From IMG/VR virus record IMGVR_UViG_3300006033_000021: a DNA stretch of 20,000 nt. One strand, 5' to 3'. Position 1 is the first letter of the stretch. The number at the start of each line of letters is the position of its first letter. Source of the DNA: an uncultured virus (IMG/VR IMGVR_UViG_3300006033_000021) (lineage: Duplodnaviria > Heunggongvirae > Uroviricota > Caudoviricetes). This document shows, one piece after another, positions 172-16,967 of the stretch. The notes beneath the pieces were generated by a model. It made no database searches. It was given only the letters and a program-made list of their open reading frames with translations, and had not been told where the DNA came from. The position numbers and the translations under genes were made by a program.

Positions 172-789
172 ATGTGGTCCTCCGATATCACTAAGGCATT
201 TGACTATGCGATGTATAATCATCGCACACAAACACGCAAAGCCATGGGGTCGGTTCCTTATGGATCCCACCTCATGGCTGTTACTGCTATTGTTTTAGAA
301 TGCGGCGGCACAGAGGCAGAAGCTATTGCTGCATTGCTGCATGATGTCGTTGAAGACACAGATCGTACACTTAACGACATTCAGGTGTTGTTCGGCGACG
401 AAGTGATGAGTATCGTTGCTCAAGTGAGCGAAGATAAGTCACTCAAATGGGAAGACCGAAAGCGAGCGGCTATTACGCATGTTACCGATATGACCGATTC
501 GGGTCTTTTGGTAAAATGTGCAGATGTGTTACATAACACTGGTACCTTGCTTTCTGATTTTGATAGTATCAACTGGTCTTTCTTTAAGAAGGGTAAGCAT
601 GTTACTCTTCACAAGTATAGTTCGGTACTCAAGGCGTTGGTTAATGAGGTGGCGCAGAGGCAGAACTTCGCGCCCGTCATAAGGGAGCGCTTGGATAAGA
701 CCTATGCTAATTTCCAGGAATTGGTGTTGACGCATTGTTGCGAATCAGATCCTCGAAAAGTCTACGATTGGTTTAAGGGAGAAGAATGA
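172..789 (+). CDS. RelA/SpoT-type HD-domain small alarmone hydrolase (Mesh1/SAH-like)
   Basis: Motifs H-x-x-Q-x-R-K, PYxxH, AALLHDVVEDT, VSEDK and KCADVLHN are typical of (p)ppGpp hydrolase HD domains; no synthetase domain. Confidence 0.88.
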   Translation: MWSSDITKAFDYAMYNHRTQTRKAMGSVPYGSHLMAVTAIVLECGGTEAEAIAALLHDVVEDTDRTLNDIQVLFGDEVMSIVAQVSEDKSLKWEDRKRAAITHVTDMTDSGLLVKCADVLHNTGTLLSDFDSINWSFFKKGKHVTLHKYSSVLKALVNEVAQRQNFAPVIRERLDKTYANFQELVLTHCCESDPRKVYDWFKGEE

Positions 790-1368: not shown

Positions 1369-1815
1369 ATGATGTGTTTGAGTGATTGGTTACAGTTAAT
1401 TGAACGGGTTTCAGAGAAGTGGCAGAAGAATTACATCGAGGATTGCATGATTGCTCAACCAAAGCAATCATGGACCCGTCAGTATGGCAGGGCCATAACA
1501 CCCTATACCGAAAATTGCTTGATTTATAAGCAGTGGGTTATAGGCGGGATTACTGGGTGTGGATGGAGCGATAAAGACCAAGGCTATCCCAGAGATCCTG
1601 ATCCTGAACCGAATAATGATTTGCTGGATGCTATCTTAACAGAGGTAGCACCCGACATCAAGTATCTTCAGTATCGTAAGATTGAAGCACTGGAAAAGCA
1701 GTCATATTACGAAGAACAATCAGGATACTACGGTAATCGTAATAGGTATGCTGTTAAGACGATTGCCTTGAAAGATCTGTATGCGGCTCTAGTCGATATG
1801 GGATATCTTCAATAG
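1369..1815 (+). CDS. hypothetical phage protein (paralog of 18316-18738)
   Basis: GAGGAG RBS; C-terminal similarity to 18316-18738. Confidence 0.8.
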   Translation: MMCLSDWLQLIERVSEKWQKNYIEDCMIAQPKQSWTRQYGRAITPYTENCLIYKQWVIGGITGCGWSDKDQGYPRDPDPEPNNDLLDAILTEVAPDIKYLQYRKIEALEKQSYYEEQSGYYGNRNRYAVKTIALKDLYAALVDMGYLQ

Positions 1816-1848
1816 GATTCCAGGATTGTCAATGGGTATCAATACCAT

Positions 1849-2310
1849 ATGGACCTATTGAGGATAGTTTTAGCTAACATGCGCACACTTGAACAAGATC
1901 TGTATTCAATTGTGCCTGCTATTGTGGCGAGCGCGCAAGCGGCTTATAATAAGCATGATTTGTTGCCTGAGGATATCGAGGATTTGGCGGGTGGTGGTAT
2001 CTGTGATGATATCGCAGAAGCCATCGCAGAAGCCATTAATGAAGCTTTATTTTCGGGTGACTCAGATGTAGACGTTGAAGCTAAAACTGTTCATCATATG
2101 GACGAAAACCATACATTGGTATATGTTCGAAGGATACAGCAAAACGGTGGAGTCGAAGTGGTTATGGTTGATATTCCATACCATATCTATGAGACACAAA
2201 GGGGGTATTATCAGTATGATATTACTCCAAATGTGGTTTTCGAGCCAAATAATGTGCTAATCAATACTATTGATATCTCCTCCGAGGATTTTGACGCTTT
2301 AGACGAGTAG
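1849..2310 (+). CDS. acidic hypothetical protein with a possible Cys-His-Asp (papain/transglutaminase-like) triad
   Basis: 153 aa; GGGICDDIA ... ENHT ... VDIPY spacing. The functional hint is weak. Confidence 0.7.
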   Translation: MDLLRIVLANMRTLEQDLYSIVPAIVASAQAAYNKHDLLPEDIEDLAGGGICDDIAEAIAEAINEALFSGDSDVDVEAKTVHHMDENHTLVYVRRIQQNGGVEVVMVDIPYHIYETQRGYYQYDITPNVVFEPNNVLINTIDISSEDFDALDE

Positions 2311-2316
2311 TATAAT
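2291..2316 (+). promoter_or_regulatory. possible promoter of the Pth2 module
   Basis: Perfect TATAAT 2311-2316 followed by AGAG, similar to the other promoters here. TTGACG at 2291-2296 is only 14 nt away, which is non-canonical. Confidence 0.4.
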
Positions 2317-2334
2317 AGAGCTAGGAGAATAAGA

Positions 2335-2664
2335 ATGCGCAGATATTAGGACCAACACTTCTACGTACTGGTAAGGGATGACCTTCCCATTCCTCAACAA
2401 GCTGTTCAGGCAATTCACGCCGCTCACGAAGCAGCTTTACACTTAGTCGAACCTCCCCCTAAGATTGCATCATTGGTACTATGTTCTGTGCCAGATGAAG
2501 ATGCTTTACTTCGGGCTGAGCATGTCCTTAATATGAAGGGCGTGCGTAGCATTGTCTTTTATGAACCCGATATGGGTAATATCCCTACTGCTCTGGCTAC
2601 AGAGTATGTGACGGGTTCCACTCGTAAGTTGTTTAGTAAATATCCACTATGGGGAAAGGAGTAA
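2335..2664 (+). CDS. Pth2-family (peptidyl-tRNA hydrolase II-like) protein with in-frame TAG at codon 5 (2347-2349)
   Basis: AGGAG 2323-2327, ATG 2335. Translation MRRY*DQHFYVLVRDDLPIPQQAVQAIHAAHEA...SLVLCSVPDEDALL...GVRSIVFYEPDMGNIPTALATE...RKLFSKYPLW matches the Pth2-fold pattern VRxDL..Q..HA / EPD..TALA. 109 codons if read through. Confidence 0.8.
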
Positions 2665-2667
2665 ACC

Positions 2668-2709
2668 ATGTTGTAGGGCACGGTAGAACGCGCGCCTCCC
2701 ATTGGCTAA
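2668..2709 (+). CDS. amber-interrupted leader peptide ML*GTVERAPPIG (putative ribosome-arrest peptide)
   Basis: AGGAG 2657-2661, ATG 2668, TAG 2674-2676, CGC GCG CCT CCC (RAPP) 2689-2700, TAA 2707-2709. Confidence 0.7.
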
Positions 2710-2744
2710 CTAAATCGGTATGTTGCCCTTTTGCCAATGGAGAG
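2696..2744 (+). promoter_or_regulatory. RBS-sequestering hairpin (translational attenuator)
   Basis: CCATTGGC 2699-2706 is complementary to GCCAATGG 2733-2740, extendable by CTC/GAG; it covers the GGAG SD (2739-2742) of ATG 2750. Confidence 0.65.
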
Positions 2745-2749
2745 ATACA

Positions 2750-3118
2750 ATGTTAACTGAATATATCATCGACCGTTTAACCAAGATTCGTCAGCGTATC
2801 AAGGCTTGTGCTTACTATGTGACTAACCAGGAGCATTGCAAGCCTGAAGATTATGATGAGATCATTAAGACAATCAGCCCATATAGCCGTAGTTGTGAAT
2901 ACTATATGACTGCCTTGTTGAATCTACACCATAAGATTCGTGGTCATACTGAAAGTTATCACGACTATAAGCCAGCTAAGGATGGTTCTCATGATGGGCG
3001 ACAAAACTATGTGAGTAGCCTTCAGTATGCGCTCATGAAAGAACTCGACATTACCAAGGAGATGCTCGATATGATCGCTGCAAATGTCGAGGAATATCAA
3101 GCGCAGAAAGTTGCGTAA
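2750..3118 (+). CDS. hypothetical protein downstream of the RAPP leader
   Basis: GGAG SD 7 nt before ATG 2750 (preferred over 2720); 122 aa. Confidence 0.8.
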   Translation: MLTEYIIDRLTKIRQRIKACAYYVTNQEHCKPEDYDEIIKTISPYSRSCEYYMTALLNLHHKIRGHTESYHDYKPAKDGSHDGRQNYVSSLQYALMKELDITKEMLDMIAANVEEYQAQKVA

Positions 3119-3129
3119 TATTGCGCAAT

Positions 3130-3162
3130 GGGGCGGTGGGGGGGATGATTCTCCACCGCCCC
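3130..3162 (+). terminator. GC-rich hairpin closing the Pth2 module
   Basis: GGGGCGGTGGGGG 3130-3142 pairs with TCTCCACCGCCCC 3150-3162; no U-tract. Confidence 0.55.
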
Positions 3163-3212
3163 GAATACAGGAATTTTGAACCATAAGGCCGAATGAGATA
3201 TTGGAGGCTATG

Positions 3213-3620
3213 ATGCGATACTTACTAAAGTGCTTGACAGTTATAGTGCTATTGGCTACTCCTCTTTTTGGGCAATCGCTCAATGATCCTAATGTAACAG
3301 CTACAGCTAAAGGGCAATGTGTTGTTATTCCTCTTAGATATGCAGATGCACCAGCGTTGGCAATGCTATTCGCCAATTCTCAGTGTCAGGGGATGCCATT
3401 GAGATATCAGATGTTAATGATGATGTCTGGTGGTTTTGGTAATCAGGGCGGCATGGGCGGCGGCAATCAAAATCGCTACGGTGGCGGTATGGGTGGCTGG
3501 GGCAACCAGGGTGGCGGTATGGGCTACGGTGGCGGTATGGGCGGTTTTGGTAACCAGGGTGGCTACGGTGGTGGTCCGCGCGGCTATCAAGGCGGCTTTG
3601 GTCGTAACCGGAGAAATTAG
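3213..3620 (+). CDS. secreted protein: signal peptide, secretin-N (NolW-like) fragment and Gly-rich tail
   Basis: GGAGG RBS 3203-3207; signal-like N-terminus MRYLLKCLTVIVLLATPLFG; VVIPLRYADAPALAMLF motif; GGFGNQGG repeats. Confidence 0.7.
   Translation: MRYLLKCLTVIVLLATPLFGQSLNDPNVTATAKGQCVVIPLRYADAPALAMLFANSQCQGMPLRYQMLMMMSGGFGNQGGMGGGNQNRYGGGMGGWGNQGGGMGYGGGMGGFGNQGGYGGGPRGYQGGFGRNRRN
3428..3603 (+). repeat. imperfect coding tandem repeats (GG[F/W]GNQGG, YGGGMG)
   Basis: Repeated ggtggcggtatggg and aaccagggtggc units. Confidence 0.8.
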
Positions 3621-4243: not shown

Positions 4244-5131
4244 ATGGCATTTACGACAATCACACCGGGGACACTACCCGTCGTCAACGTGAGTGGGGAT
4301 ACATTGCCCGAAGTATGGGAGGCAGCACTAGTTGCTGTATGGGACCATGGGGCGGCTATTCCCACTCAATACGACAAGCCCGGTGATCCACCTAGCAAAG
4401 ATGCTACAGCCATCTTAACTATCCACCATCCTCTACAAGAGCCCCGTATTCACCTCGCATTCCCAGGCGGTATAGCGGATCTAGAGATCTATCGCCAAGA
4501 AGTCGTAGATGGTATTCACGATCATTGGATTGATCCCAAAGCCGGCAAGTGGGAGTATACCTATCACGAGCGATTGTTTGATTACAAGGTTTTGGTAAAG
4601 CAAGATGCTGGGACGGTTTTTGAATGCCGGCCTATAAAGCATATCAATCAGATCCAATACGTAATTGACGCTTTAGTAGAAGCCCCTCATACACGCAGAG
4701 CCCAAGCTATTACTTGGAAACCGTGGGAGGATTGTGGTATTAGCGATCCCGCATGTCTCCAGTCATTATGGTTCCGTATATTTGATGATGAATTGGTAAT
4801 GAATGTTAGAATGAGATCTAATGATCTATTTAAGGCTACATTCATGAATCTTTATGCCTTTATAGATTTGCAAAGATTGGTGGCTGAAAAAGTATCAGAA
4901 AAGCTTGGTAGAGAAATCCGTGTTGGTCAGGTTAATCACCAAGTTGATTCTATGCATATCTACGGGTCTTATTATCAAGAGGTTGAGCGTTTCCTTGACA
5001 CAATGAAGAATAAAACCTTCAGTCAGAGGACTTGGAATGCTTGTGATTACGCTGATGTCTTTGAAGAGGCTAAGGCTGATATCAAAAAGTCTCTAGAAGA
5101 AGAAAAGCGCACAGGCAGAAAAGGAGTCTAG
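4244..5131 (+). CDS. thyA: thymidylate synthase family protein
   Basis: YTYHERL, TRRAQ, catalytic DPACLQ, MRSND, FMN (Asn associated with dUMP preference) and SMHIY motifs. Confidence 0.9.
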   Translation: MAFTTITPGTLPVVNVSGDTLPEVWEAALVAVWDHGAAIPTQYDKPGDPPSKDATAILTIHHPLQEPRIHLAFPGGIADLEIYRQEVVDGIHDHWIDPKAGKWEYTYHERLFDYKVLVKQDAGTVFECRPIKHINQIQYVIDALVEAPHTRRAQAITWKPWEDCGISDPACLQSLWFRIFDDELVMNVRMRSNDLFKATFMNLYAFIDLQRLVAEKVSEKLGREIRVGQVNHQVDSMHIYGSYYQEVERFLDTMKNKTFSQRTWNACDYADVFEEAKADIKKSLEEEKRTGRKGV

Positions 5132-8048: not shown

Positions 8049-8337
8049 AGACAACAAGAAGCTAATTGGTCGCACTCATGGATATTACTACGCAATGAGC
8101 GGTGGTGTGTTCGTTAGTTGTCCATTCTCAGATCCTGTGATTAAGAAGTCTTGGAAAAAGGGCTGGAAGCAGGGTCAGCGCGTTCGTCAGGCTTTAATCA
8201 AGAAAGCATTCGGTCGTATCCCCAAGGCATTTATGGGTGAGTTAATGTGCGAACCATTGCGTATTGCTATTAACTACCAAAGTCTTGGTAGGTCGTTTCT
8301 AGACTTCTCTGAAGGAAATGTTGGGGTAATGCAATGA
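8041..8337 (+). CDS. RMF-like (ribosome modulation factor motif) protein with a capsid-like C-terminal segment
   Basis: GYYYAMSG...SCPF...KKSWKKGWKQG matches the RMF pattern GY..G...CPY...W..GW. Confidence 0.6.
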   Translation: MNKDNKKLIGRTHGYYYAMSGGVFVSCPFSDPVIKKSWKKGWKQGQRVRQALIKKAFGRIPKAFMGELMCEPLRIAINYQSLGRSFLDFSEGNVGVMQ

Positions 8338-8891
8338 AAGACGGATTGATTACTCGTGATGATATTCCACATTTTCCTCATTGGGGTGGCTATAGTATTC
8401 ATGTTTCATGGGATTATCTAGAATATCAGTTAGATCACTATAAGGCTGACTATAATCTTGACATGGATCCAGATTTTCAAAGAGCACATGTTTGGACTCG
8501 CCAGCAGCAAATTGCTTTCATCGAATTCAAACTGCGTGGGGGGTTATCGGGTAAGGATATCCTCTTCAATTATCCCGATTTTCAACGAAGTTCCTCCTTC
8601 ACTGATAAAATGCTATTGGTGGATGGAAAACAGCGTTTGCAGGCAGTACGGGAATTCTTGTGTGGAAACATTGGCATCTTTGCTGATCTCTTTGGGAAAC
8701 CTAAGTTCTATGGTGAGTTTGACCGCACAGTGTTTGGTATTACTGAGGTTAACTTTATCTTCCATATCAACTCTCTTCTTACTCGTAAGCAGGTTTTGGA
8801 ATGGTATCTGTCTCTTAACGCGGGTGGTACCCCACATACATCCGAAGAAATCACTAAGGTTGAGGGATTACTTGCAGAGGAATCATCATGA
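8334..8891 (+). CDS. stand-alone DUF262 (GmrS/ParB-like) protein
   Basis: PDFQRAHVW, LVDGKQRL and LNAGGTP motifs. Confidence 0.85.
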   Translation: MKDGLITRDDIPHFPHWGGYSIHVSWDYLEYQLDHYKADYNLDMDPDFQRAHVWTRQQQIAFIEFKLRGGLSGKDILFNYPDFQRSSSFTDKMLLVDGKQRLQAVREFLCGNIGIFADLFGKPKFYGEFDRTVFGITEVNFIFHINSLLTRKQVLEWYLSLNAGGTPHTSEEITKVEGLLAEESS

Positions 8892-9330: not shown

Positions 9331-9753
9331 ATGACCAAAGAAGATTATGATAACTACGCCTTTGCTTTTGCCTATGCCGGGCGCGAGCAATTATGGGAGA
9401 TGATTGAAGATAGTAAGGCTAAGATCGATAAGCTTGAATCGGTCTTGAATTTTGCTGATAATATCATATGGATTCATGATAACCATATGATTTACTATGT
9501 TCCTTACAGAAATCAGTCGCGTATTCTTGCGACTGATTCAAATGGTCGCTCATGTGGTAGAAGTGTTAGGATTCATTATGATTCCTTGATCTTCTGCGGC
9601 GGGAACTTTGGTGGCATAGAAGATCCCCATTGGGATATAGAGGCTACAAAAGAATATGTTAATCTTTGTGATGGGCTAGAGCCCGCCAAAGACGATATCC
9701 TTAACTGGTTTATCCATGGTATCGTGCCCGATGGAGCCACTAATGCAACTTGA
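9331..9753 (+). CDS. hypothetical protein (tandem paralog B)
   Basis: GAGGAG RBS; ends LEPAKDDILNWFIHGIVPD. Confidence 0.75.
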   Translation: MTKEDYDNYAFAFAYAGREQLWEMIEDSKAKIDKLESVLNFADNIIWIHDNHMIYYVPYRNQSRILATDSNGRSCGRSVRIHYDSLIFCGGNFGGIEDPHWDIEATKEYVNLCDGLEPAKDDILNWFIHGIVPDGATNAT

Positions 9754-10129
9754 TGATGTGGTGGTTAGAAGTTTTACGGTCGCTTGGATAGTTGCAGGTA
9801 ATGGTGATTTTGAGCCAGGGGTATTACCCTGGGATAGATTTCAGTCGTATCAGCATGGGCTTGTTGATGAGATTACTGTAGAGTGGCGTGGTCATGGTCG
9901 GTATGGCGTTTTTTACTTTGGTTGTCGTCTCTCTAAAGAAGATTTTTGTTTCGATATGGAGCCGCTACCCAGTAATCGTACACAGGAATTCTTAGACGCG
10001 CATACATTTGATAGTATTGAAGAAGCCATTGATGGTGTATTGACCTATCTTGCTGCGCGCCCAGAACACATTAAGTACATGGTACATCCATCATTTATCA
10101 AGGAGAATAAAGATGTGCAAGAAAATTGA
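9743..10129 (+). CDS. hypothetical phage protein
   Basis: GGAG RBS 9733-9736, ATG 9743. Confidence 0.7.
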   Translation: MQLDDVVVRSFTVAWIVAGNGDFEPGVLPWDRFQSYQHGLVDEITVEWRGHGRYGVFYFGCRLSKEDFCFDMEPLPSNRTQEFLDAHTFDSIEEAIDGVLTYLAARPEHIKYMVHPSFIKENKDVQEN

Positions 10130-10580
10130 CCGTTTTGAGGGCAAGTACGAATTCTTATCAAACTTCTATGTTCTAGAGCACCCTATTACAATTTGGTTAA
10201 AGGGGCAAGGCTACGACTTCTATCACACAGAGGGTGCCTTCCAGGCTAGTAAGTGTGATAATATCGAAGATATTGATCGATTCCTCGGTCTACGACCGGG
10301 CCAGACAAAGCGGTTAGGTCGCAATGTTAAGCTGCGTTCAGATTGGGAAAATGTAAAGATCGATGTGATGACTCAGGTTGTTAGGCAGAAGTTTGAATGT
10401 AATCCTGAGTTGTTACAACGTCTCCTAGATACTGCTCCTGCCAAATTGGAAGAAGGCAATAATCACGGAGATCAGGTCTGGGGTACTGTTGATGGTGTCG
10501 GCACTAATTACTTAGGTAAGGTTCTGATGAAGATCAGAGATGAATTCCAGGCTGCACGAGAGGCGAAAGATGGCGAGTAA
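10113..10580 (+). CDS. NADAR (YbiA-like) family protein
   Basis: FLSNFY, TEGAFQASK, KRLGR..LRSDW, KF..NPEL..LL.T, EGN..GD.VWG, G.NYLG..LM.IR; AGGAG RBS. Confidence 0.92.
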   Translation: MCKKIDRFEGKYEFLSNFYVLEHPITIWLKGQGYDFYHTEGAFQASKCDNIEDIDRFLGLRPGQTKRLGRNVKLRSDWENVKIDVMTQVVRQKFECNPELLQRLLDTAPAKLEEGNNHGDQVWGTVDGVGTNYLGKVLMKIRDEFQAAREAKDGE

Positions 10581-12913: not shown

Positions 12914-12987
12914 GGCCGGGTAGCCCAATTGGTAGAGGCAACAGATTCAAGTCCTGTAAAGTATGGGTTCGAATCCCATCCCGGCTA
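12914..12987 (+). tRNA. tRNA-Leu(CAA), short variable loop
   Basis: GGCCGGG/CCCGGCT plus A73, loop TTCAAGT, T arm ATGGG-TTCGAAT-CCCAT. Confidence 0.85.
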
Positions 12988-13012
12988 TAGTATACGAGAA
13001 ACAGAATACCCT

Positions 13013-13086
13013 GCCTGGGTAGACCAATTGGTAGAGTCAATAGTCTTAGGAACTATGTAGTATGGGTCCGAATCCCATCCCAGGTA
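13013..13086 (+). tRNA. tRNA-Leu(TAG), short variable loop
   Basis: GCCTGGG/CCCAGGT plus A73, ATAGT-CTTAGGA-ACTAT, T loop TCCGAAT (non-canonical). Confidence 0.85.
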
Positions 13087-13331
13087 TTAACACCAACCAC
13101 AAGGAGTACGTAACAGGCAGTGATTATCGGACCATTCAATGGCTTTAGCACCTTAGCTCTGTTGATCACATCTAAGGTCGAGTCAAGCTATAAGAGCTAC
13201 GAAGAGTACCGTTGATATCCAATCATCTCTTAGGAAGAAGCCTCGACGGAGGAAAAGGTCTAGACCGGATGATTGGCTCTACAGCGTGTGGATGCGACAT
13301 CTTATAGCAGCCTGTTGTGGTTGGTGTTAAT
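13086..13331 (+). ncRNA. unassigned ~245-nt structured RNA
   Basis: Perfect 17-bp closing stem (13086-13102/13315-13331) with nested helices; the ORF track shows no ORF here. Confidence 0.7.
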
Positions 13332-15158: not shown

Positions 15159-15515
15159 ATGGAACACAACATTGTTGGACTTTTGCGCTTCTGGAAGATT
15201 ATCACAGACCTGGAACAGTCCGATAAACGCCATAAAATCCTTCGTTTCTTTGGTGCTCCTGATGAGTTTGTAAAAGATAGTAATTGCTCTTTCTTGCAAC
15301 TATATACAGGGAAAATTCTTGAGTTAAATGGTAAAAAAGCTACTTGTATTTTAGTAGAAAAAGACGGTAAAACTTCCAGGGTAATTCTACAGGCGACTCA
15401 GTTACTCAAAGAGAAAATTGGAGTTAATGACTATTTTGCCTATATCATTGTTAGGCGGGGCTTAGATACTAGAACCCTTTACAAGAAATTGGAAACTAAA
15501 GCTGAAAAGAGCTAA
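15159..15515 (+). CDS. hypothetical protein
   Basis: 118 aa ORF in a co-directional gene run. Confidence 0.65.
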   Translation: MEHNIVGLLRFWKIITDLEQSDKRHKILRFFGAPDEFVKDSNCSFLQLYTGKILELNGKKATCILVEKDGKTSRVILQATQLLKEKIGVNDYFAYIIVRRGLDTRTLYKKLETKAEKS

Positions 15516-15518
15516 ATT

Positions 15519-16235
15519 ATGAAAGCCGACAAATGGGATCCATGGCATGTGCTGTGGGGATTTAAGTCTGTACATAATGACTATCAATTGGGAAAGAAGC
15601 TGGATATTGATGCTTGGGATATGATGTATTATGATACTCCAGGATGTCTCATTAATCGTTGGCAAAGCCTTTACAATAGACAGTGGCGGTTGTATCATAA
15701 TTGGCAACACGTAAAGGATATGCTGGCGCTTGCTGAACGTCATTATCGCGGCCCTCGCAAGCACCGAGCCGCATTGGTGCTTGCTATCATGGCTCACGAT
15801 TTAATCATCGATAGCGATGATAATGAAGCTGCAAGTTGTTGGGAGCTTCGCAAGAAAATGCGCGTATACGCTGCGGCTGCGGAACATGTTGGGTACTCAA
15901 AGCTACTGCGAAAGATCAATAAGAGTGTAGATGAGGCTTGTCGCCTTATCATGCTGACTAAAACGCATACTACTGAGCCCAACGATAGTGTGGGTTGGTT
16001 TATGATCCTATTGGATCTCCATATCCTGACCGCTCCTCGTGAGAAATATCAGATCTATCGTAAAGGTGTGATGCGGGAGTATGAGCATATGGGTGTGTCG
16101 TCTCAGCAGTTCAACATTGGAAGAAGTCACTGGATCGAAACAATGATGGGCAAGGTTGATTCGCTACCCGAGCTAATCCCAGGTGATAAACAGCGAATAG
16201 TAGATAATCTATTTGTTGAACTTAGTGCAATGTAA
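15519..16235 (+). CDS. HD-superfamily metal-dependent phosphohydrolase (COG4339-like)
   Basis: RLYHNWQH, LAIMAHD, DNEAAS, LIMLTKTH, DLHIL..Y..Y...V.REY..F..GR. Confidence 0.8.
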   Translation: MKADKWDPWHVLWGFKSVHNDYQLGKKLDIDAWDMMYYDTPGCLINRWQSLYNRQWRLYHNWQHVKDMLALAERHYRGPRKHRAALVLAIMAHDLIIDSDDNEAASCWELRKKMRVYAAAAEHVGYSKLLRKINKSVDEACRLIMLTKTHTTEPNDSVGWFMILLDLHILTAPREKYQIYRKGVMREYEHMGVSSQQFNIGRSHWIETMMGKVDSLPELIPGDKQRIVDNLFVELSAM

Positions 16236-16247
16236 AGGATAGCTATC

Positions 16248-16967
16248 ATGTCAGAAGACCGCGCGACGCAAATGGAAAATGCCAAGCATTTTCTTAGGGC
16301 TTTTCAGTTAAGTCATTATAAGCATAGGGCCAAGAACGTCCCCGTCATTCGTAATCCTGTGCTACCTCGGGTGTTGCTGAGCGTTGATGAGGTTCCGCAG
16401 GGAGTGGCATTCCATCTTCGGCCTCATGAGTCGGAAAAGTCTTTTTGGTTGACTAAGGACCATAAGGTCGAGGTTGCATCCATTGAGACCGTTGAAAATG
16501 GCGATGATTACATTAGGGTACCAGAGTTCCAAGTCGTTGCTAAAGATGCTGTGTCTATTGACGCCACTTTTGATGCTATTCAAGAACAAGAAGATGCTAT
16601 TTTCTGGAAGCTTTTCACGGAAGCGGTGGGGTCGCTTTCATCGGGCATTACTACAATTGAGCCCGGTCAGGTTGTTTCAATCTTAGACGCTAGTAAGATG
16701 TACCGCATCATTGTTATTGCTGACAATGATGAGCTTGAAGCTCATGTAAAATCATGGGACATTAACAACTGTATGATTGTGAGGACAAAACAGATCAAAA
16801 CTTCCGCATGTTATGTCATGAAAGATCCATTGTGTGTCGGTACTTATCTCCTACGACAAGAATATACCATCTTACCCGATGGCGATCAATTCGTAGGATT
16901 TATCATCGCAGGAATGTTGCTTACCCCTGGGGATGACAACATTATTGTATTCAACCTAGAAATCTAA
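16248..16967 (+). CDS. possible degenerate major capsid protein paralog
   Basis: LLSVDEVPQG, VPEFQV, IQEQEDAIF and VGTYLLRQEYTILP resemble, from memory, a large-phage HK97-fold capsid family. Confidence 0.5.
   Translation: MSEDRATQMENAKHFLRAFQLSHYKHRAKNVPVIRNPVLPRVLLSVDEVPQGVAFHLRPHESEKSFWLTKDHKVEVASIETVENGDDYIRVPEFQVVAKDAVSIDATFDAIQEQEDAIFWKLFTEAVGSLSSGITTIEPGQVVSILDASKMYRIIVIADNDELEAHVKSWDINNCMIVRTKQIKTSACYVMKDPLCVGTYLLRQEYTILPDGDQFVGFIIAGMLLTPGDDNIIVFNLEI

Follow-up and report, generated by a model that had tools for sequence, protein, structure and literature searches.

An early in-frame stop codon in a family of Pth2-like phage genes and its association with suppressor tRNAs

Organization of the locus

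The DNA analysed here, from now on referred to as the window, is a stretch of 20,000 nucleotides from an uncultured Caudoviricetes virus (IMG/VR record IMGVR_UViG_3300006033_000021) and, according to its protein cluster record, is part of a contig of about 78 kb. It contains a short gene in which a Shine-Dalgarno site, a start codon and a short leader are followed by an in-frame TAG, here called the gate, and then by a domain of 104 codons (Table 1). This arrangement had been described in an initial annotation of the DNA, and re-derivation of the coordinates confirmed the AGGAG site, its 7-nt spacing from ATG 2335, the MRRY-TAG leader and the open frame beyond. The succession of Shine-Dalgarno site, start, leader, stop and domain is thus a real feature of the window. 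ATG 2335, the TAG and the domain share one frame, and no frame shift of the prfB type is involved. The codons right after the TAG are GAC CAA CAC TTC TAC GTA CTG GTA, and inspection of the in-frame codons bore out the claim that no ATG, GTG or TTG lies between the TAG and the conserved N-terminal strand. The earliest canonical in-frame start past the TAG is TTG 2473, while the public gene call (P0007) begins at GTG 2488 and comprises 58 amino acids. With either start, the invariant QQxVQAxHA motif is lost.

Table 1 Positions of the features of the window that are discussed in the text
Feature	Position	Strand	Remarks
HD_4 gene	172-789		Context gene
ORF	1369-1815		In one frame with the next ORF and with 2335-2664, parted only by TAGs
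ORF	1849-2310		In one frame with 2335-2664
Shine-Dalgarno site AGGAG	2323-2327	+	7-nt spacer to ATG 2335
Leader MRRY	2335-2346	+	ATG CGC AGA TAT
In-frame TAG (gate)	2347-2349	+	Codon 5 from ATG 2335; next base G
Pth2-fold domain, 104 codons	2350-2661	+	Opens DQHFYVLVRDDLPIPQQAVQAIHAA...; assigned by alignment, AlphaFold2, Foldseek and profile comparison with PDB
Terminal stop TAA	2662-2664	+	Differs from the gate TAG
Small ORF	2750-3118	+	Shine-Dalgarno GGAGAG at 2739-2744, ATG 2750; carries MTALLNLHHKIRGH; candidate member of a conserved neighbour family
Glycine-rich ORF	3201-3620		GGMGG-type repeats
Divergent thymidylate synthase gene	4244-5131		Context gene
GmrSD_N gene	8334-8888		Context gene
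Leader-like stretch and long ORF	9656-9679 and 9716-10129		SD-like site, ATG, 7 codons (MLIFVMG) and TAG in frame with the long ORF
NADAR gene	10050-10577		Context gene
Two paralogous tRNA genes	12914-12987 and 13012-13087		74 and 76 nt; Leu anticodons CAA and UAG
Three neighbouring ORFs	15159-16967		In one frame, parted by TAA

The immediate flanks of the gene are filled by ORFs, unlike those of most relatives. Directly 3' of the gene, 17 loci of the family encode a small protein with the motif ITACLNLxHELRGSxHRH, for which no Pfam or PHROG family was matched. The small ORF 2750-3118 of the window probably belongs to this neighbour family, judging from an alignment confined to the motif (hhalign probability 83% over 16 columns). 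A second kind of neighbour, found 3' of the gene in 7 loci, is an HD-like protein of about 200 amino acids with a match to phrog_14850. Against Pfam HD it scores 21 bits, narrowly missing the cut-off of 22, and it corresponds to the N-terminal domain of the fused proteins of 260-280 amino acids encoded by the cultured phages Xoo-sp13, XacN1 and RAS14. No such partner was found in the window by tblastn (best E 0.45). The context genes fit a typical phage early region. At the nucleotide level, window positions 1800-3200 had no match in the phage collection searched.

Upstream, two ORFs lie in the same frame as the gene. This same-frame run is probably a matter of chance. In a second study (run X2), contigs about 97.5% identical to the window carry a +1 insertion behind position 2309, and the shared frame with ORF 1849-2310 is therefore not conserved. 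Fusion of the gene with this ORF was considered and rejected, since the ORF matches no Pfam or PHROG family, has no real similarity to the HD-like N-terminal domain of the jumbo-phage proteins and is separated from the gene by the insertion in the natural variant. A comparable run is formed by the ORFs across 15159-16967. A leader-like stretch, MLIFVMG-TAG, also precedes ORF 9716-10129 in frame; this ORF probably starts at an ATG 12 codons past the TAG.

Fold and active-site residues of the encoded protein

The initial annotation had placed the read-through protein in the Pth2 family, an assignment that stands with respect to the fold and is not carried by the PF01981 model. The score of the window protein against this model, 14.5-14.7 bits (E 0.04), lies below the gathering cut-off of 23 bits; among relatives, the Xoo-sp13 protein passes at 29.5 bits and that of RAS14 reaches 21.6 bits. 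Because of this weak score, the assignment rests on profile and fold comparisons. An AlphaFold2 model based on a 41-sequence alignment reached a pLDDT of 92.9 and a pTM of 0.86, and the top 12 Foldseek matches in the PDB were all Pth2 or Pth2-like proteins (TM 0.72-0.81), the structures matched including MJ0051 (2zv3), human Bit1 (1q7s), AF2095 (3erj), PH1539 and S. solfataricus Pth2. A profile built from 41 unaltered relatives (alignment A2) matched 24bt_A (E 1.4e-4) and 2zv3 (E 0.015) when compared with PDB. Among PHROG families, the window protein matched phrog_1866 (E 1.8e-5), to which no function is assigned there, and Protein Atlas returned short viral clusters together with one PTH2-labelled cluster (score 0.90), a result of no further weight for the assignment.

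According to the model, the window protein is a Pth2 fold with an altered active site. Eight residues are invariant in alignment A2, namely Q16, Q17, Q20, A21, H23, A24, E72 and T80 (counted from codon 2350), and the window protein keeps all of them. In Pth2, the Lys of the GK motif and the Asp of DAGxT are catalytic. The invariant Q16 and Q17 align with the GK or KK of solved Pth2 structures, such that the Lys of GK is replaced by Gln. D74 of the EPD motif aligns with the Asp of DAG in 24bt_A; the loop that follows is shorter by 4 residues, and nothing aligns with the Thr. The replacement of GK and DAGxT by QQ and EPD, proposed from the window sequence, therefore holds both in the alignment and in the profile comparison. 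The family thus resembles Pth2 (PF01981) in its fold, in weak but consistent profile homology, in the Q..HA motif and in the Asp aligned to DAG, and differs from it by QQ in place of GK, by the EPD loop in place of DAGxT, by being phage-borne and by its link to suppressor tRNAs. Hydrolase activity of the window protein is presumptive, and its biochemical role is a guess, given that Gln takes the place of the GK lysine of Pth2.

This is a large family: clustering at 50% identity gives 4,686 representatives at E <= 0.001 and 2,222 at E <= 1e-10. In cellular genomes it is rare: one genome each of 185,579 species yielded 6 loci, all in MAGs. One locus (L188) lies on the 8.26-Mb chromosome of a Rubripirellula MAG, a planctomycete, where a leader MTGFT-TAG and a tRNA-cta are found, possibly within a prophage.

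The early stop and suppressor tRNAs in relatives

We fetched 97 relative loci, 17 on viral contigs and 80 on metagenome contigs, and located in each the nearest in-frame stop before the QQ motif. The non-duplicate set of 86 loci consists of 83 relatives from two collection scans, two cultured-phage loci and the window. A layout of Shine-Dalgarno site, start, short leader, in-frame stop and domain was found in 56 of these 86 loci, with TAG as the early stop in 49 and TGA in 7, and the remaining 30 are without an early stop; since the loci are related, such counts do not represent independent events. Because the same layout recurs this often, its occurrence in the window is more than chance, and the early in-frame stop is, by sequence comparison, a trait of the family. 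In the early-stop loci, ATG, GTG and TTG are either absent between the stop and the conserved strand (29/56) or confined to the inside of the strand (23/56); a GTG or TTG further upstream was seen in the other 4. A third, independent collection showed leader and TAG in 5 of 6 loci.

The initial annotation had named the alignment of homologous 5' ends as a check. Annotated proteins of stand-alone relatives do begin downstream, with an M or V that corresponds to residues 9-11 of the read-through protein, which taken alone would count against the initial annotation, but the DNA keeps an in-frame stop behind a Shine-Dalgarno site and start. The downstream calls arise because gene callers cannot cross a stop. 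The three cultured phages carry a related arrangement: in Xoo-sp13, XacN1 and RAS14, where the domain is fused to the HD-like domain, an in-frame ATG AAG (AAG) TAG stands just before the conserved N-terminus TEQTxGQxILQHGLS, and all three phages encode tRNA(cta). In RAS14, the next canonical start past the TAG is a GTG that cuts into conserved residues, and the annotation begins there. The annotated fused genes after ATG-AAG(-AAG)-TAG cover 1036-1821 in L003 (Stenotrophomonas phage RAS14) and 976-1818 in L001 and L002.

A TAG at this place could also stem from a mistake in sequencing or assembly or from a nonsense mutation of recent date; the window comes from a single assembly, and the sole sequencing run spanning the whole stretch may be the source of that assembly. 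Across three collections, however, dozens of relatives assembled independently share the feature, as do three finished genomes of cultured phages, which makes such an origin extremely improbable.

The sequence context of the stop was tallied over 60 loci, that is, the 56 early-stop loci and 4 from the third collection. Counting the start, leaders comprise 2-9 codons, most commonly ATG ACN TAG, and in 50/60 the leader start has an SD-like site no more than 20 nt away. The residue before the stop is Thr in 31/60; the MRRY leader is atypical in this respect, Tyr being found before the stop in the window only. The stop is followed by G in 45 loci, by A in 10, by C in 5 and never by T, and the first codon after it is very diverse (GGN, GAY, GTN, ATT, CTN, ACA, AAC, AAA). 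In one clade, the leader residues G-F-T are kept while their codons vary (GGA TTT, GGC TTC, GGT TTC), which indicates that the leader is translated.

Many loci carry a tRNA gene whose anticodon would read the gate. Of the 49 TAG-gated loci, 28 have a tRNA(cta) and none a tRNA(tca), and in 21 no suppressor was found in the DNA examined; of the 7 TGA-gated loci, 3 have a tRNA(tca) and none a tRNA(cta), with no suppressor in the DNA examined for 4. Wherever a suppressor was found, the type of the gate stop and the neighbouring anticodon match without exception, and many of the 25/56 early-stop loci without a suppressor in the DNA examined are short contigs. One additional TGA/tca pairing, L083, is a duplicate of L082. 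In the ARAGORN tally of loci L004-L100 and the window (with its four tRNAs), which includes duplicate loci, the anticodon cta accounts for 61 of 126 tRNAs, the next most common type for 6. In relatives, tRNA(cta) lies mostly on the strand of the gene and 50-700 nt away; in five long contigs it is the tRNA found closest to the gene, in G001 and G003 it is located away from the main tRNA cluster, and in the third collection it lies within 3 kb in 6/6 loci.

The change of gate codon can be followed on a quick tree, on which L046 (TGA, tca) and L006 (TAG, cta) form a sister pair (aLRT 93). TGA-gated rows appear in about five places, though this tree is based on few columns and has low resolution, and its starred branches require no more than 2 changes for the TGA state.

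The suppressor tRNAs score and align as ordinary tRNAs. True pyrrolysine tRNAs, the label that ARAGORN gives to cta, were rejected as an alternative: 11 of these tRNAs in ten loci score 53-67 bits on the general tRNA model. Use of UAG as a start codon by an initiator-like tRNA was likewise rejected, since the tRNAs look like ordinary elongators (initiator-specific features being unscored) and leaders extend up to 9 codons. Two loci have suppressors for two stops, cta and tca in L014 and cta and tta in RAS14 (L184). tmRNA genes were found in the same tRNA clusters as the suppressor in L021 (1419-1799), L022 (1732-2083) and L181 (8202-8622), at most 1.6 kb from the gated gene in L021 and L022, and XacN1 has a tmRNA near its tRNA(cta) pair.

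A second, separate gate position exists in the family. Four subclade loci (L012, L016, L084 and L095) have a plain ATG start and a TAG inside the domain, after P-G or P-P and about 20 codons past QQ, and all four carry tRNA(cta). L009 has both the early and the mid-domain TAG; no tRNA(cta) was found in the DNA examined for it.

Probable read-through of the gate and its possible function

Terminal stops of TAG-gated genes largely avoid the gate codon, with TGA in 34, TAA in 11 and TAG in 2 of 47 complete cases. Among long ORFs in the flanks, by contrast, 22 of 86 end in TAG. We considered whether MRRY-stop could be a separate leader behind which ribosomes re-initiate at a non-canonical codon of the window, for example GTA 2365 or CTG 2368, with no read-through at all. 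The leader is very short and its Shine-Dalgarno site strong, an ATG or GTG directly follows the stop in L013 (TGA-ATG), L026 (TAG-GTG) and L087 (TGA-GTG), and the strong base bias after the stop could reflect another local signal. Re-initiation nevertheless sits poorly with the very varied codons that come next after the stop, does not account for the match between stop type and neighbouring anticodon, cannot apply to the TAGs in mid-domain and leaves the avoidance of the gate codon at the terminal stop unexplained. Overall we consider it unlikely. Ribosome hopping is known from T4 gene 60, where it takes place between matched codons; ACN flanks the stop in some leaders of the family (L004, L027) and not in most, and this option was rejected.

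A genome-wide reassignment of TAG, similar to genetic code 15, would turn the gate into an ordinary sense codon. Suppressor tRNAs and TAG recoding are indeed known in gut phages, as described in the available portion of Borges et al. (10.1101/2021.08.26.457843), and the three same-frame ORFs ending at 2664 are parted by TAG only. In the window, however, TAG ends 16 of 47 long plus-strand ORFs, among them the thymidylate synthase, two bases behind which the ATG of the next gene follows, and the gain in ORF cover from a sense reading of TAG does not exceed that from a sense reading of TGA or TAA. In G001 (98 kb, 37% G+C), TAG ends 11/80 long ORFs, and junctions of two long ORFs across a TAG number 1, as compared with 15 for TAA. 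Flanks of 18 low-GC tRNA(cta) loci have TAG at the end of 22/86 long ORFs, with junction counts of 7 for TAG, 9 for TGA and 9 for TAA. The scattered in-frame TAGs and poor code 11 coding density of TAG-recoded genomes were thus seen neither in the window nor in relatives. The family stop also occupies one fixed place, and the X2 insertion breaks the same-frame run. Reassignment is therefore very unlikely, and the gate is specific to this gene because neighbouring genes use TAG as an ordinary stop.

Taken together, these observations favour suppressor-dependent translation, which is the only reading that covers the covariation of stop and anticodon, the TAGs in mid-domain and the scarcity of the gate codon among terminal stops; re-initiation, hopping, recoding, pseudogenization and sequencing error each fall short on one or more of these points. 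The window gene (2335-2664) probably needs suppressor-mediated read-through of UAG. The need for amber read-through at codon 5, put forward in the initial annotation, is supported by the conserved stop, the match between stop and anticodon and the signs of purifying selection described below, and read-through presumably does occur.

The likely agent of read-through is not visible in the window. ARAGORN, also with relaxed settings, and Rfam (E <= 1) found no tRNA(CUA) in the 20 kb, in which ARAGORN identified Ser-cga, Leu-caa, Leu-tag and Arg-tct, and the flanks of the gene are taken up by ORFs. In the cultured jumbo phages the tRNA lies about 200 kb from the gene, for which reason its absence from 20 kb is weak evidence. 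We infer that this phage either has a tRNA(CUA) outside the 20 kb or uses one of its host. The two tRNAs of the window with Leu anticodons (12914-12987 and 13012-13087) lack the long variable arm expected of bacterial-type tRNA-Leu, and the CAA anticodon of one of them is one base away from CUA.

The missing tRNA could also mean that the window gene is a relic whose cassette has lost its suppressor, leaving the gene silent or decaying. The position of the gene among ordinary ORFs rather than in a tRNA cluster and its atypical leader would fit such a history. Comparison with the X2 variant points the other way: over positions 2380-2664, the two differ at 7 sites, 6 synonymous and 1 a conservative V-to-I change, a comparison that excludes the TAG, which lies 8-10 nt from the end of the variant contig and is unreadable. 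This excess of synonymous change argues for purifying selection and against a pseudogene, in agreement with the lack of decay noted earlier for the roughly 104 codons. One of the differences turns GTG 2488, the start chosen by the gene caller, into GTA. The invariant residues, the terminal stop, the Shine-Dalgarno site and the probable downstream partner ORF are also all in place, and the distance between tRNA and gene in jumbo phages weakens the argument from the 20 kb. We therefore regard a relic as quite unlikely.

Under suppressor-dependent translation, ribosomes would initiate at ATG 2335 behind the strong Shine-Dalgarno site and reach the UAG at codon 5; the protein would be made only if an amber suppressor tRNA decodes this codon, with termination at the UAA. 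Expression of the protein would therefore report suppressor tRNA activity. The product may be an ester hydrolase that acts on a tRNA-linked substrate within the suppressor tRNA cycle. Our preferred guess, by analogy with the UGA of prfB, is that output follows suppressor activity in a loop of the feedback or feed-forward type. In one version of this loop, the product would limit the amount of charged suppressor tRNA; in another, it would clear peptidyl-tRNA or stalled ribosomes that result from read-through. As L006 and L046 differ in their stop, a function centred on the tRNA or on read-through, independent of the particular stop or release factor, is favoured.

Two known systems are instructive for comparison. 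In prfB, which encodes RF2, an early in-frame UGA is passed by a +1 frameshift and senses the release factor. The window gene resembles it as a translation-related gene with an early in-frame stop whose output would be set by how the stop is read; unlike in prfB, its frame is unchanged and the covarying partner is a tRNA. Synthetic amber-suppressor gates combine a suppressor tRNA with an amber-bearing gene into a genetic AND gate. Here too, output would need both the transcript and the suppressor tRNA, but the phage cassette, unlike engineered gates, is natural, conserved and mobile among phages.

In natural phages, suppressor tRNAs have been reported before. In its available portion, the XacN1 paper describes two CUA suppressor tRNAs and an in-silico read-through of 18 amber stops that found nothing, target genes not being identified (PMC5852040). 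We likewise detected two tRNA(CUA) genes in XacN1, together with a homolog of the window gene, ORF364; the stop at the 5' end of ORF364, which is seen in the DNA, is not considered in that portion of the paper (PMC5852040). Lak and crAss-like gut phages have suppressor tRNAs and TAG recoding, and the 'code change module' outlined in the accessible part of Borges et al. comprises a tRNA, an aaRS and a release factor, a hydrolase being unmentioned in that part (10.1101/2021.08.26.457843). As in these recoded phages, judging from the same part of that source, a suppressor tRNA is expected to decode an in-frame TAG or TGA and the stop may act as an expression timer. Unlike them, the family described here has one fixed stop in a single gene whose neighbours use TAG normally. 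A literature search, from which subscription journals were mostly excluded, returned no paper in which a Pth2-like protein is connected with an in-frame stop or with suppressor tRNAs of phages.

These findings extend the window gene to a conserved cassette, in which a stop-gated gene is associated with a suppressor tRNA, in phages of standard code. There is also a practical side: gene callers truncate or miss such genes, as illustrated by the 58-amino-acid call in the window and by the RAS14 start inside conserved sequence. The suppressor tRNAs of many standard-code phages are unexplained, and the gated Pth2-like gene, whose gate codon changes together with the tRNA anticodon, is a concrete and conserved candidate for their target. 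The family may help to explain how phages adjust or initiate the reassignment of stop codons. More speculatively, and with rather low confidence, we propose that suppressor tRNA and gated gene form a mobile, self-contained cassette that gauges suppressor decoding, with a product acting on the aminoacyl- or peptidyl-ester form of the tRNA. If so, the cassette would supply the missing target of XacN1-like jumbo-phage suppressor tRNAs, would keep the level of read-through fixed in phages with an otherwise standard code and would represent a natural, tRNA-based counterpart of RF2 autoregulation and possibly a first step toward full stop-codon recoding.
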